Shown here piece by piece: positions 45,429 to 53,754 of a DNA stretch of 64,000 bases. Position numbers and translations under genes: made by a program. The stretch is taken from assembly GCA_965261345.1 (NCBI GenBank), contig OZ253449.1, forward strand, positions 768,001-832,000, read 5' to 3'. The notes below the pieces were generated by a model. The model was not told the origin of the DNA, made no database searches, and worked only from the letters and a program-made list of their open reading frames with translations. Every line of letters starts with the position of its first letter. The first letter of the stretch is position 1. Source of the DNA: Chloroflexota bacterium. GTDB taxonomy: Bacteria > Chloroflexota > UBA11872 > VXNJ01.

Positions 45429-45524
45429 GATCACCTGCGAAATGCCCGCATCCCCACCAAAGTGAGCTTTAGGCCCGCTGTAGGGCGGCGGCGGTTGCCC
45501 CTGTACCTTGTATGTTCCAAATGG

Positions 45525-45685
45525 GAAGTCCCGGGTGCGGTAGGGCGCCTGTACCTTGGTCCATTGAGACCGTTTTAAAGCACGCTCGCCGCACCCGGAT
45601 CTCCCGGCGCATAGACCCCGAACAATTGCTCGGTGGGCTCTAGACCCCGTATTCGCAAGGAAGGGCGTAGCGTCGGGAGTAACTA
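45525..45685 (+). ncRNA. Bridge RNA of IS110-A (ends approximate)
   Basis: Stem CCGGGTGCGG/CCGCACCCGG encloses CCTGTACCT (45548-56) and TTTAAAG (45574-80); stem CTCCCGGCGC/GCGTCGGGAG encloses ACAATTGCT (45622-30) and GCAAG (45655-59). Confidence 0.88.
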
Positions 45686-45700
45686 TAGGGAGTTTTACAT

Positions 45701-46648
45701 ATGTGCGAGGACGTATATGTAGGCGTCGACGTTGCCAAAAACACCGTCGATATCGCCCTCGGGCCCCAGGGCGAGGTCTTTACCCTGCCCAACTCTGCGG
45801 CCGGGTTCGGGGCGTTGATCAAGCGCCTCGAGAACTATCTGGTGGCGCTGGTGGTCGCAGAGGCCACTGGCGGCTACGAGGAGCAGCTGGCCGACGCTCT
45901 CCGGGACGCCGGCTATAAGGTGGCGGTGGTAAATCCGCGCCAGATGCGCGACTTTGCCCGGGCGCTTGGGATCCTGGCCAAAACCGACCGGATCGATGCC
46001 CGGGTGATCGCCCGCTACGCCGAGGCGGTAAGGCCCCCGGCAAGGGAGCGCAAGTCGCCCGCCGAGCGCGAACTGGCGGGACTGGTTGCCCGCCGCGGCC
46101 AGCTCATGGACCATCTCACCGCCGAGAAAAACCGGCTGGGGAGGCGGGTAGTTCCGCGTGTACGTGCAGACATCAGGCGCGCCATTGCCGGACTGGGGCG
46201 CCGCATCGCCACCCTTGACCGCGATATCGGCAAGCTGATTAAGGCCGACTCCGATCTTGCCACCCGCAGCGCGCTGCTGACCTCGGTGCCCGGCGCCGGC
46301 CCGCAGCTGGCGGCAACCGCGATCGCCTACCTGCCCGAGCTTGGAACGGTGGACGAGAAGCAGATCGCAGCCCTGGTAGGGGTTGCGCCCCTGAACCGCG
46401 ACAGCGGCGCGTATAGTGGCAGGCGAACGACCTGGGGCGGACGCTCAAGGGTCAGGTCGGCGCTTTACATGTCGGCCCTGTCAGCCTCGCGCCACAACCC
46501 GGTGATCAAGGCTTTTTACGACCGGTTGGTGGAGAGCGGGAAACCCAAAAAAGTGGCGCTGACGGCCTGCATGAGAAAGCTGCTGGTGATCCTGAACGCG
46601 ATGCTGAGGAACGGCGAGTATTGGCGCGAGGAGTCCGCCTCGGGCTGA
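45701..46648 (+). CDS. IS110 family DEDD recombinase, intact, 315 aa
   Basis: GVDVAK, EATG, KTDRIDA (DEDD); SVPGAG; NRDSG catalytic Ser. Confidence 0.96.
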
Positions 46649-46860
46649 ACGCCGGGCAGGTCCGATCGCTCTTGCGGGCAAGGTCCCTGGCGAAGCCATG
46701 CCCGGGATCGGGCTATTGCGGCGATTACGCATCCGGTTATCGCCTGTCGATCGGGCTGCGGTCACTATGAACCGCGGTCGGGGCGCTGGATCTATCCTCC
46801 CCTTTCTCCTGGACCCCTCTGACCCCACCTCTGCCGGAATTGACAATCAAGACAATTGCT

Positions 46861-50284: not shown

Positions 50285-50455
50285 TAGTCCCGGGCGCGGC
50301 AGACCGAACCCCGCTAGGTTGTCGACAAACCGTGCCGTAGCGTGGTCGCCGCACCCGGATATCCCCTACCTGCGAGCCCGAACGATTGATTGGGCCGCCA
50401 CTTCTGCGGCAGAGCCCGCATTTTGCAAGCGTGGGCGACCAGTAGGGGATGCTAA
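50285..50455 (+). ncRNA. Bridge RNA of IS110-C (ends approximate)
   Basis: Same scaffold as A; AACCCCGCT (50307-15) and GCCGTAG (50334-40) versus target ACCCCGG-CT-ACATC; ACGATTGAT (50382-90) and TTGCAAG (50423-29) versus donor ACGATTG-CT-TGTAT. Confidence 0.85.
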
Positions 50456-51309
50456 TGGAGTTTTGCACATGCACGACGCTGCGATATATGTGGGCATCGA
50501 CGTCAGCAAGGACGGCGTGGACGTGGCCGCCGGATCCGGGGGCGCGGTACGGAGGTTCGCCAACACCCCGGCCGGAGTCGGGAATCTGATAAGGCGCCTC
50601 AAGTCCTTGTTGGTGGCCCTGGTCGTACTTGAGGCCACCGGCGGCTACGAGGAGCGTTTGGCCGACGAATTGGACGACGCCGGTCATGCGGTGGCGGTGG
50701 TGAACCCGGGCCGGATCCGGAGTTTTGCCCGTTCGCTGGGGGTCCTGGCCAAGACCGACGCCATCGACGCCAGGATAATCGCGCGCTATGCCGAGGTGGT
50801 CAAACCCCCGGCAAGGGTCCAGCCGTCCAGGGCAGTCCGCACCCTGGCGGCACTGGTCGGCCGCCGCGACCAGCTGCTGGCCATGCAGGTCGCAGACCGC
50901 AACCGATTGGAGCTGGTCAGCGACCCGACCGTCCGAGGTGACATCCGCCGCGCGGTCGCCGGCTTCAAGCGGCGCATAACGACCCTGGACCGCAAGATCT
51001 CCGCCGCCATCGCCGCCGACCGCGAGCTCAAGGCCCGCGACGAGCTGCTGACATCGGTTCCGGGCGTGGGGCCGGCGTTGGCCTCGACCATGGCCGCCTA
51101 CCTACCCGAATTGGGCAGCCTCGACAACAAGGCCATTGCCGCGCTGGTGGGGGTGGCGCCCTTTAACCGCGACAGCGGACGCTCCAGCGGCAAGCGGTAC
51201 GTCTGGGGCGGCCGGAGCCAGATCCGGAAGGTGCTGTACATGGGAGCGCTGGTGGCCACGCGGCACAATCCGGCTATCAGGGCGTTCTACGAACGCCTGG
51301 TTGCGGACG

Positions 51310-53234
51310 TTCGCGGTAGGGACACCGATTGCTCGGTGCCCCCCGCACAAATCCGTACGTGCGCGTTAACGCATACGGCTTTTAGCTCGGGTATTTGACG
51401 GCAAAGCGGTATGCGGGCCACGGGTGGAGGATTCGGGCAGGGGGAAGATGTGCGGCGCTCAAGGCGCGCAGTCGCTCCCATGGGAAGCGGTCGTTTTGCG
51501 AGCGGCGGCGGATGCTGTGTAGCCACAGGCGCTCAAGCTCATGTTTGAAGCTTGAGAGGTGCCTGGAGCTGGTAGGAACGGCATAGTAGCCGAACCAGCC
51601 CTGCAACACCATGCCGAGCCATTGCCCGGTCTCCGCTGGATCGTCGTGCATCGCTGCACGCAATCGCTCCTTGATCGCCTTCAGGGTGCGTCGAACGCGC
51701 TTGGCGATGGGCTTGCGCCCCAGTCCGAACCGTCCGTTTCGTTTTATCCGGCAGTAGTGAGTGAAGCCGAGGAAGTCGAACGTTTCCGGTCGCCCCTCGC
51801 CGCGCTTGCGGCGGCTCGCTTGTGCGTATCTGCCGAACTCGATCAGGCGGGTCTTGTGGTCTGCAAGCTCTAGTCCGTACTCTTTCAGCCTGTCCTGCAA
51901 ATCCTTTGCAAATCTGGCCGCATCGCTGCGGTGTTGAAACGCCAGTACGAAGTCATCCGCGTAGCGGACTATATAGACCTCGCCGCTGGCCCGTTCGGGC
52001 CGCCATTCTTTGGCAAACCACGAGTCCAGGACTTTATGCAGGTACACGTTGGCAAGCAGCGGCGAAATCGGCGCCCCTTGCGGTGTTCCCTGCACGCTGT
52101 CGGATAGTTCTCCGGCTTCCATTACTCCGGTGCTCAGCCATTTGCGGATTAGGCGCAGGACGCGGTTGTCTCCGATTCGCTCTCCCAGGAACGAGATGAG
52201 TCGCTCGCGGTCGAGATGGTCGAAGAAGCCTTTTATGTCGGCGTCAAGAATCCAGTTGACTTTTCGGCGTTCGATGGCGTAGGCCAACGCGTCCAGCGCG
52301 TCGTGCGCCGACCTTTTGGCCTGAACCCGTATGAGAACCCGGCAAATTCCGACTCGTAGATCGGGTCGAGGATTTGTTGACACACCGCCCGCTGGAGGAT
52401 CTTATCCTCTATGGATGCGATTCCGAGCGCTCGCGTCCCCCCGTCCGGCTTGGGTATCTCTACCCTGCGGACGGGGGTCGCCCGGTAGCTCTGTCGGAGT
52501 ACTCGGTCTTTTAGGTCGAGAAGGTTCTCTTCCAGGTTCTCCTCGTACATCCTCCACGTGATCCCGTCGGCGCCGGGGGCGGCTTGGGGCTTTAGCCCGT
52601 AGAACGCATCCCTTAGCGCGTCAAGGTCTACGTGGCGGGGGAGCGCGGTGAGTTTCTCCTCTGGGTTCTCTTTGGCGTGTTGCCGTACGCGTTCGGCTCC
52701 GGGTGACACGGGAACCCACCCCTGGGTGTAGTCCGTGCCGGTGCCTGGCGCGTTCCTCTTGCTTGCGGCCCTTCTCTCCAGCGGCTCCGCCGAGGACTGC
52801 TCCTCCTTGTTCGCCGCCTTCGCAGGTACTATGGCCGCATCAGACTTCTGCACATCGTGCATCATCGGCTACGGATACCTCCTTCCCGATGCGACCCCGG
52901 ATCTGCGAGTGAACCGGGGTAATGCGCAGATCTCCCAGTTCCCGGCATTGGACGTACGAACGTGCCTGGGTTCTTCGACACCGCAGAGCCCGGCGCTGAC
53001 TGGCCCTTCGCGCCAACGCCGGTGTTGCCTTCGACCGCTTACAGGGTCTCGGCGCTCCGGAATTTATTCTTGTTTCGGTGCTCAATAGCCCTGCCCGCCC
53101 GCGCCGCTGTCAACGCTTCATGCCCGGCCTCGCGACCGGTCACGCATGACTCGCGGAGTGCTGCGGATTGGCTCCTTTCCTTTCAGCATGCGGGACTTTC
53201 ACCCGCTGTCCAATGCCAGTTAGACTGGCCGTTC
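51310..53234 (-). mobile_element. Group II intron (boundaries uncertain by a few nt)
   Basis: Domain V AGCCGTATGCG-TTAA-CGCGCACGTACGGATT and domain VI ending CCCTACCGCGAA on the minus strand; structured 5' region; RT ORF. Confidence 0.92.
51382..52865 (-). pseudogene. ltrA: Group II intron reverse transcriptase/maturase, frameshifted near 52315, no endonuclease domain
   Basis: APGADG, IPKPDG..R.LGI, SYGFRP | SAHDAL, DIKGFFD, GTPQG, RYADD, FDFLGF; one A is missing in CCA AAA GG. Confidence 0.9.
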
Positions 53235-53754
53235 GCAAACCCAAGAAGCTGGCCCTGACAGCCTGCATGCGCAAGCTGCTGGTGATCTTGAACGCGATGG
53301 TGCGGCACGGCGAACTCTGGCGTGGGGAGCCCGTCTCGGACTAAACGCCTTGTAGGTCCCGACCGCTCTGCGAGCAAGGTCCCGGGCGAAGCCCTTGTCC
53401 GGGATCGGGCTCTCGCGGCGATTCCGCATCCGGTTACCGCTTCTCGATCGAGCCCGATCGGGGCTGCGTTCGCTATGAACCGCGGTCGGGGCGCTGGATA
53501 TCTCCTCCCCTATCTCCCCCGGACCCCTCTCATCCCACCTCTACGCATTTGACATTCAAGACGATTGCTACATCTAAGGGTTATGGACCAGGGATCAGGG
53601 AGAACGGTGGGCAATACACCCACGCCGCGTTCTGGTCGGTGGTGGCGTTCGCCATGCTCGGCGAGGGCGACAAGGCGAACTGTTCAACCTTTTAAACCCC
53701 ATCCGCCTTTCAAACCGGCGCGCGAGCGCCCACCGGTACAAGTTGGAGCCCTAC

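Follow-up and report, generated by a model that had tools for sequence, protein, structure and literature searches.

Within a 64,000-nucleotide stretch of a Chloroflexota bacterium genome (contig OZ253449.1 of assembly GCA_965261345.1, positions 768,001 to 832,000; hereafter the window) lie two insertion sequences of the IS110 family, IS110-A and IS110-C, and the question raised by this locus is whether they are programmed by bridge RNAs of the kind described for IS621, built on a common scaffold but carrying different guides. Our answer is that A and C are very probably IS110-family elements with IS621-type bridge RNAs, representing two lineages of one clade. This answer is carried by features observed in the DNA, namely the anatomy of the elements, the matches between guides and flanking DNA, the covariation of the RNA stems, the ends, and the empty sites. 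A and C add members to the known IS621-type bridge-recombinase family rather than a new type of system, and they or close relatives may already be present in the lists of predicted orthologues of 2024. The strings quoted in a preliminary description of the locus, which called A and C a natural reprogramming pair, are all present where it placed them, and the interval that it drew runs from the first base of A (45509) to the T of the right core of C (53569).

The ends of both elements could be read by comparing copies. The genome from which the window derives (G000) contains seven A-type copies, five of which are 98.8-100% identical in DNA, have identical left ends and encode full frames of 315 amino acids (aa) that are at least 99% identical; the remaining two are decayed (the copy near 875 kb, 875k) or split by an intron (268k). 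C is present in three copies, two of them intact and 99.7-99.8% identical to the C of the window. All six full A copies read CT-TGTATG...ACAATTG-CT and all three C copies read CT-TGTATC...ACGATTG-CT, with unrelated outer flanks in each case. Because the ends are shared while the flanks are unrelated, the element lengths are 1350 bp for A and 1375 bp for C, with a CT core on both sides. A is indeed intact and compact, as had been proposed. Both the copies and the empty sites reveal a short CT core at the two junctions without longer duplication, the exception being a copy of a sister type, D (see below), which has CC at its right junction.

Empty sites point the same way. A is inserted in the left terminus of another IS110 element, IS110-B, and B-type elements lacking A display the unoccupied site: CCTGTACCT joined to TTAGGTAGC occurs at five loci in one sister genome (G002), and CCTGTACCT joined to TTTAGTAGC at three loci in another (G006). 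Joining the two flanks of the window's A through a single CT gives exactly the former. When the own genome was scanned with the predicted A 14-mer, the matches listed included no unoccupied site with zero or one mismatch and at least five unoccupied sites with two mismatches. For C, the left flank has no counterpart in the five sister genomes, and positions in the Pfam GH94 profile were therefore used instead. The two window flanks of C correspond to profile positions 319 and 324, which are adjacent and therefore indicate a simple insertion into a GH94 gene.

The proteins are those expected of the IS110 family. A, B and C all carry PF01548 and PF02371 (E-values 8.7e-25 and 7.4e-20 for A, 1.4e-20 and 1.1e-19 for an intact C copy). 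The transposase, or recombinase, of A (TnpA) aligns with IS621 (8wt6) over residues 5-306 at an E-value of 5.6e-43 (phmmer) and with ISCro4 at 6.1e-43. Residues D10, E54, D96, D99 and S235 of TnpA fall under D11, E60, D102, D105 and S241 of IS621, taken as catalytic from the available text of PMC11208158. Of these, E54, D96, D99 and S235 do not vary between A, C and a third copy, and D10 is present in A and C, the third copy being truncated at that position. Among named relatives of the A transposase, the closest (72-89% identity) come from Chloroflexota assemblies. Joining the right end of each element to its left end, as in an excised circle, creates TTGACA-17-TATGTT in A and TTGACA-17-TATCTT in C (10/12 score), and it is only across this junction that a promoter is predicted, its -35 box being supplied by the right end and its -10 box by the left. 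The same junction-promoter arrangement is described for IS621 in the part of PMC11208158 available to us.

Upstream of the transposase gene, the left ends of A and C each fold into two stem-bounded internal loops (z-scores -2.95 and -2.94). A covariance model of such left ends, the first check suggested by the preliminary description, was built: the RNAalifold consensus of 20 aligned left ends has 22 pairs, of which 16 show double changes, and 93.6% of its cells are paired, values reached by none of 500 shuffles, while pairing falls to 39-50% in a control with slid partners. Left ends of Xanthomonadaceae IS110 elements align with those of A and C as one covarying family, and the model finds 13 matches in the own genome and 35 in the five sister genomes. 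It gives no match to B, which belongs to a different subgroup. Of the two stems said to be shared by A and C, the first is real, with one C-A mismatch in the outer stem of C. The second, CCGAAC...GCAAG, is not a stem; CCGAAC is a conserved lead-in to the left donor guide, and GCAAG contains the right donor guide CAAG, the complement of the core CT followed by TG, with which the left end begins.

Evidence also comes from comparing the loops with the DNA, for which the IS621 rules in the available text of PMC11208160 were used. With the core included, the window flanks match the target guides at 9/9 (left) and 5/8 (right) positions for A and at 7/9 and 5/8 for C, so that the earlier claim of distinct target guides tracking their sites, including CTAC on the right of C, stands. 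The window contains the A left target string CCTGTACCT twice, once in the loop and once at the left junction, against 0.14 expected, and no shuffle of 100 gives two. The A donor string ACAATTGCT likewise occurs twice, in the second loop and at the right end with its core, against 0.29 expected, with two occurrences in 3/100 shuffles. The C donor 9-mer, with one mismatch allowed, is found 13 times against 17 expected. Since that string alone is no rarer than chance, the C donor case rests on position and on orthologues. As previously noted, donor guides co-vary with the right end, ACAATTG being found in both places in A and ACGATTG in C, and this extends to all 16 distant orthologues (from Chloroflexota, Planctomycetota, Xanthomonadaceae and others), each of which has its exact donor-guide 7-mer 3′ of the transposase gene, followed by CT. 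The right flanks of the same orthologues agree with the right target guide, read as its complement, at 8/8 positions in seven cases, 7/8 in seven and 6/8 in one; the sixteenth, in which the sequence is cut off, matches at 4/4. Across 13 distinct right target guides the cognate non-core mean is 4.85/6 versus 2.12 for non-cognate pairs, and none of 10,000 permutations reaches it. The right donor guide has a contiguous length of only 4-5 nt, and it compensates: the left end CGTATC of a sister type, E, goes with CGAG, and a Xanthomonadaceae left end with TAT goes with AUAAG.

The own genome provides a further comparison. Together with A and C, the covariance model uncovers three sister types there, D, E and F. 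When all five guide types are scored at 13 sites, the cognate one comes first, or shares first place, at 11. At non-core positions, the A guides fit five sites at 6-7/7 on the left and 3-5/6 on the right, the C guides fit the three C sites at 5-6/7 and 3-4/6, and non-cognate pairs score mostly 0-3. CCTGTAC is at the left flank of four of the seven A copies and CCTATAC at that of one. The C left target guide scores only 0-3/7 at sites other than its own, and the complement of the C right target guide, CTACGGC, compares with right flanks CTACGGT, CTATGGC and CTACATC. The fifth type, F (CACAAATCT / TTCACTAG; G000 873173-873370), has a left flank, TACAAATCT, matching its guide at 8/9 positions, and a group II intron interrupts its left end. 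The best sites of C lie in a repeated coding sequence (...HPRYGYKRIT...) at 13578 (-), 116772 (+), 1301410 and 146112 of the same genome, which, judging by this motif, we take to be an IS3-family transposase gene, and unoccupied look-alikes of C sites with two mismatches exist as well. One E element sits exactly after CAATCCC-CT within the left-target-guide DNA of a partial E copy (~148290-148530 (-), L016). Because guide and target share one sequence, an element can strike its own guide-coding DNA.

These comparisons bear directly on the view that the left ends are mere structured 5′ leaders regulating translation, that the flank matches reflect duplication or chance, and that the protein picks the site. 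An IS110 leader does regulate translation in ISPpu9, according to the available part of PMC12288879, and RNA-DNA pairing is read here from sequence rather than directly observed. However, the loops change with the flanks, in five guide types within one genome, in 25 guide sets within the genus (see below) and in 16 distant orthologues, while the stems stay paired, and the flank match is not a duplication because it reaches 7 nt past the 2-nt core on the left. We therefore regard the leader explanation as extremely improbable and favour guide RNAs.

Several observations weigh against guide RNAs in A and C. No Rfam bridge-RNA family reaches threshold at either left end. The right target guide of A matches only 3/6 non-core positions at the window's own right flank, and its guide fits poorly at the sites of two A copies and one remnant, considered below. 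In the C donor guide the core positions are AT rather than the CT of the donor, a difference at the first core base that is found in all three copies. Two metatranscriptome libraries gave contigs only, covering 45498-45595 and 46456-46687, and one contig runs in from a genomic flank resembling that of the A copy near 159 kb (159k). Because it enters from the genomic flank this contig may be read-through or DNA, and the contigs are weak evidence for expression, showing neither a discrete RNA nor its ends. The circle-junction joint was not seen in four sequencing runs. Finally, the C of the window is dead: in a correction to the preliminary description, it is interrupted by a minus-strand group II intron (~51310-53236).

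The last two points would equally be expected if both A and C were fossils that record past activity without present mobility, as would the many broken copies, including 875k, 268k and the disrupted D and E. The near-identity of the five full-length A copies with their identical left ends, the near-identity of the two intact C copies, and contigs from other samples in which A is joined to flanks absent from the own genome all speak against fossils, a reading that we judge improbable.

By analogy with the IS621 literature, from which transcription, RNA-protein binding and catalysis are extrapolated, the elements would work as follows. Each would combine a DEDD/Ser recombinase with an upstream bridge RNA of ~165-190 nt, with two internal loops, encoded in its left end. 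The 5′ side of the target loop (9 nt) would carry the sequence of the left half of the target together with the CT core, its 3′ side (7 nt, with AG last) would be complementary to the core plus the right half, and the donor loop would do likewise for the place where right and left ends meet on the excised circle, on which alone the predicted sigma-70-type promoter would exist. A complex of recombinase and RNA would then pair with both DNAs and exchange strands at the CT core, leaving the element flanked by CT on either side. A would be aimed at the left terminus of a type B IS110 element, and C at a GC-rich site in the repeated transposase gene, in which case the C of the window would have struck a look-alike in the GH94 gene. 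The IS621 bridge mechanism attributed to the two elements at the outset is supported, as each of its sequence-level features that was tested is present in both.

The genus as a whole offers a series of such guides. The 38 aligned covariance-model matches contain 25 distinct guide sets, most with donor guide ACAATTG. Next to the AG that closes the right target guide stands a base that pairs with donor position 7 in all 20 aligned left ends, including one U:A exception that compensates. Its counterpart after the AG of the right donor guide forms a Watson-Crick pair with target position 7 in 22 of the 25 genus guide sets (C:G 14, G:C 2, T:A 6), the other three being two wobbles and one mismatch. 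In the wider set of 20 sequences this donor-loop handshake holds in only 11, because nine Lysobacterales/Xanthomonadaceae-type elements fail. The donor-loop handshake base is G opposite C in A and C opposite G (target position 7) in C, and therefore the donor loop also holds target-dependent information. Among sister-genome elements with both flanks recovered, the own guide is best in 8/9; only these nine elements were counted, the strict junction pattern having missed most loci, and a best-match-in-window guide search was set aside, as it scored 5-6/9 by chance and was prone to register shifts.

The series also qualifies the idea of a natural reprogramming pair. A and C do share a scaffold and carry different guides, but their closeness had been overstated: identity is 64% between the transposases, 78% between the left ends and 81% between the right ends, and they differ further in the donor guide, the handshake nucleotide and the apical stem of the donor loop. 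A and D form a closer pair. D has 33 differences from A in its first 236 nt, among them four left and three right target-guide positions, and is 99% A-like beyond.

Three A-type sequences occupy sites to which the guide of A is a poor fit: the copies at G000 14041-15393 (14k) and 875274-876608 (875k) and a left-end remnant at ~115700-115763 (115k). These misfits are A-type from the very first base and yet abut GC(A/T)GTCCC-CT, a left target that fits D and E. At non-core positions the right flank of 14k matches the D guide, and that of 875k the E guide, at 5/6, compared with 2/6 for the guide of A itself. For the misfits alone, we give about an even chance to an explanation that needs no RNA acting in trans, namely off-target insertion by the RNA of A in a shifted register or later gene conversion of the loop. 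In a register two bases on, the A loop (CTGTACCTT) agrees with the left flanks of the misfits at 7/9 and 6/9 positions, recombination among sisters is evident from the mosaics D (a divergent 236 nt on an A-like body) and 268k, and half-matched substrates can recombine in IS621 (bioRxiv 10.64898/2026.08.31.748434, in the part available). Against it, the right guides of the sisters fit the misfit right flanks better than that of A, as given above, and a conversion tract would have no left homology arm outside the element because the first left-end bases are A-type and adjoin the foreign flank. In the case of 14k, the E/D-type left flank and D-type right flank mean that the copy may mark a rearrangement.

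A more tentative and rather unlikely reading is that the bridge RNAs of broken sisters could steer intact A in trans into D and E targets. In D and E the transposase genes are disrupted and the RNA genes are whole, and the genus shares a donor, with a right end in ...ACAATTG and a left end in TGTAT or CGTAT. Under this trans reading the elements of the genus would form a guild with common donor specificity, near-identical recombinases and at least 25 guide sets, and the 14k, 875k and 115k sequences would be its footprints. The available text of the literature suggests that natural bridge RNAs can act in trans, and no report of retargeting by the RNA of a sister element was found in the literature searched, as far as its text was available. 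If true, the RNA pool in the cell rather than the moving element would set target choice in natural IS110 populations. Seven E-type unoccupied sites exist in the genome, one of which, GCAGTCCC-CT-TTCGTTGG, falls at window positions 55051-55068, just upstream of where an IS3-family transposase gene begins on the minus strand.

A and C are part of a pile-up of mobile elements that spans window positions 45100-55100, within a single 2.39-Mb contig (Table 1).

Table 1. Features of the A-B-C locus, in window positions.
Feature	Position (strand)	Basis or detail
tRNA-Ser genes, two	45100-45323	
Left target of A, CCTGTAC, with left core CT	45500-45508 (+)	core 45507-45508; equals left target guide in the loop of A
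IS110-A, intact, 1350 bp	45509-46858 (+)	six full copies with unrelated outer flanks; sister-genome empty sites
A target-binding module (outer stem, internal loop, apical hairpin)	45530-45598 (+)	fold; covarying helices 1 and 2
A outer stem arms	45530-45540, 45589-45598	CCCGGGTGCGG, CCGCACCCGG
Left target guide of A	45548-45556 (+)	CCTGTACCT (7 nt plus core); 9/9 to left flank
Right target guide of A, TTTAAAG	45574-45580 (+)	complement of CT+TTAAA; handshake base C 45581
A donor-binding module	45601-45679 (+)	fold; helices 3 and 4
Left donor guide of A	45622-45630 (+)	ACAATTGCT; same 9-mer at right end plus core, 46852-46860
Right donor guide of A, CAAG	45656-45660 (+)	complement of CT+TG; handshake base G 45660
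A transposase/recombinase (TnpA), 315 aa	45701-46648 (+)	PF01548, PF02371
Right end of A	46840-46860 (+)	TTGACA 46840-46845; terminal ACAATTG; core CT 46859-46860
IS110-B, other IS110 subgroup	46861-48382 (+)	PF01548, PF02371; intact termini in sister genomes
GH94 pseudogene, frameshifted	48371-50267, resumes 53570-53692	family profile
Left target of C, ACCCCGG, with core CT	50259-50267 (+)	in GH94 pseudogene; 7/9 to C left target guide
IS110-C	50268-53567	inside GH94 pseudogene; transposase gene split by group II intron
IS110-C, left part	50268-51309 (+)	bridge-RNA region and transposase codons 1-~280 (ATG 50469); covariance-model match 107 bits
C outer stem arms	50289-50299, 50349-50358	
Left target guide of C	50307-50315 (+)	AACCCCGCT
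Right target guide of C, GCCGTAG	50334-50340 (+)	followed by handshake base C 50341
Left donor guide of C	50382-50390 (+)	ACGATTGAT; first 7 nt equal right end 53561-53567
Right donor guide of C, CAAG	50426-50430 (+)	handshake base C 50430
Group II intron	~51310-53236 (-)	ends uncertain by ~2 nt; RF02005 163 bits; RVT_1 and GIIM
IS110-C, right part	53237-53569 (+)	last codons (stop 53342-53344), TTGACA, ACGATTG 53561-53567, core CT 53568-53569
IS3-family transposase gene	53944-55083 (-)	family profile

The predicted target of A is the left terminus of B itself, and insertion of A should cripple B. B-type elements follow A in the window and at 268k (TnpB 100% identical) and near 41 kb and 20 kb (57-60%). 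At 159k only B-type left-end sequence follows, and a TnpB match was not found there. Each B copy has CCTGTACC before it, with differing outer flanks (also at G000 271.5-273.0 kb; L095-L117), and the right end of B is ...GGTAGAGAGT, followed by a run of C. The left end of B holds GGTACAGGG, the complement of B's left terminus, which looks like the right donor guide of B. The cellobiose-phosphorylase-like GH94 gene, bounded on the left by B and split by C, has several frameshifts, and no counterpart of it was found in the five sister genomes.

The intron in the window splits the transposase gene of C and has a frameshifted reverse-transcriptase open reading frame; RF00029 also matches it, at 36.6 bits, under the gathering score of 40. 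Nine full copies of this intron are present in the genome (another is at G000 269286-271217), eight of them in or beside insertion sequences. Two are inserted in antisense orientation into IS110 transposase genes, at the same codons (GKPKK) in both, three lie within the 5′ part of the coding region of the IS3-family gene and two just past B-type right ends, one breaks the left end of IS110-F, and the ninth (~123.7 kb) has no recognised context. Another element is inserted at the same position (~codon 11) of two IS110 transposase genes, at G000 137890-142531 (-) and 2360128-2361026 (-).

To a specialist the main finding is an ordinary one, as IS110 bridge RNAs were already predicted by the thousand in 2024, in a discovery that was itself built on guides varying over a common scaffold (PMC11208160, available text). 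What the locus adds is a well-anchored natural series, with one genus, one scaffold, one donor and 25 guide sets, and with exact ends, copies and empty sites. The 22 of 25 guide sets that conform through three pair types are independent support for the handshake rule, which also carries a caution for loop swaps, as a swap between A and C that is confined to the target loop leaves a mismatch at the handshake base. The locus also yields candidate orthologues that are compact (1350 bp, 315 aa) and come from a genome of high GC content, and the misfit copies give a testable hint that an element may be redirected in trans by the RNA of a sister.

The closest parallel to A and C is IS621 of Escherichia coli, an IS110-group element (8wt6) that has the same domain pair and DEDD and Ser residues, an RNA gene that lies upstream of the transposase gene, a pair of internal loops, a CT core, a junction promoter and handshake bases, as well as a 9-nt left guide in the top-strand sense and a right guide that is the complement of that strand. 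The protein similarity to TnpA is distant (the E-value given above). The right target guide is 7 nt in A and C as opposed to 4 nt in IS621 (PMC11208160, in the part available), the contiguous right donor guide of merely 4-5 nt is unlike that of IS621, and the targets of A and C are ends or genes of other insertion sequences whereas those of IS621 are REP elements. The ISCro4 transposase (PDB 9t56, known by its database title and compared as a protein alone) matches TnpA as well as IS621 does. In Rfam, the full-length model (1-159) of sX15, a Xanthomonadaceae sRNA (RF02234), aligns with 45522-45684 and 50285-50451 (32.5 and 39.5 bits, short of the gathering score, which is 55) on the minus strand, opposite to the transposase gene, and this family may cover an IS110 left end read antisense. 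IS4321 and IS5075, of the IS1111 group, reportedly target the terminal repeats of Tn21-family transposons, to judge from the title of a paper. They belong to another subgroup, with the RNA downstream of the gene, unlike A and C (PMC12288879, available part), and yet resemble A, on B, and the sisters D and E, on an IS3-family element, in that the target is the terminus of another mobile element.

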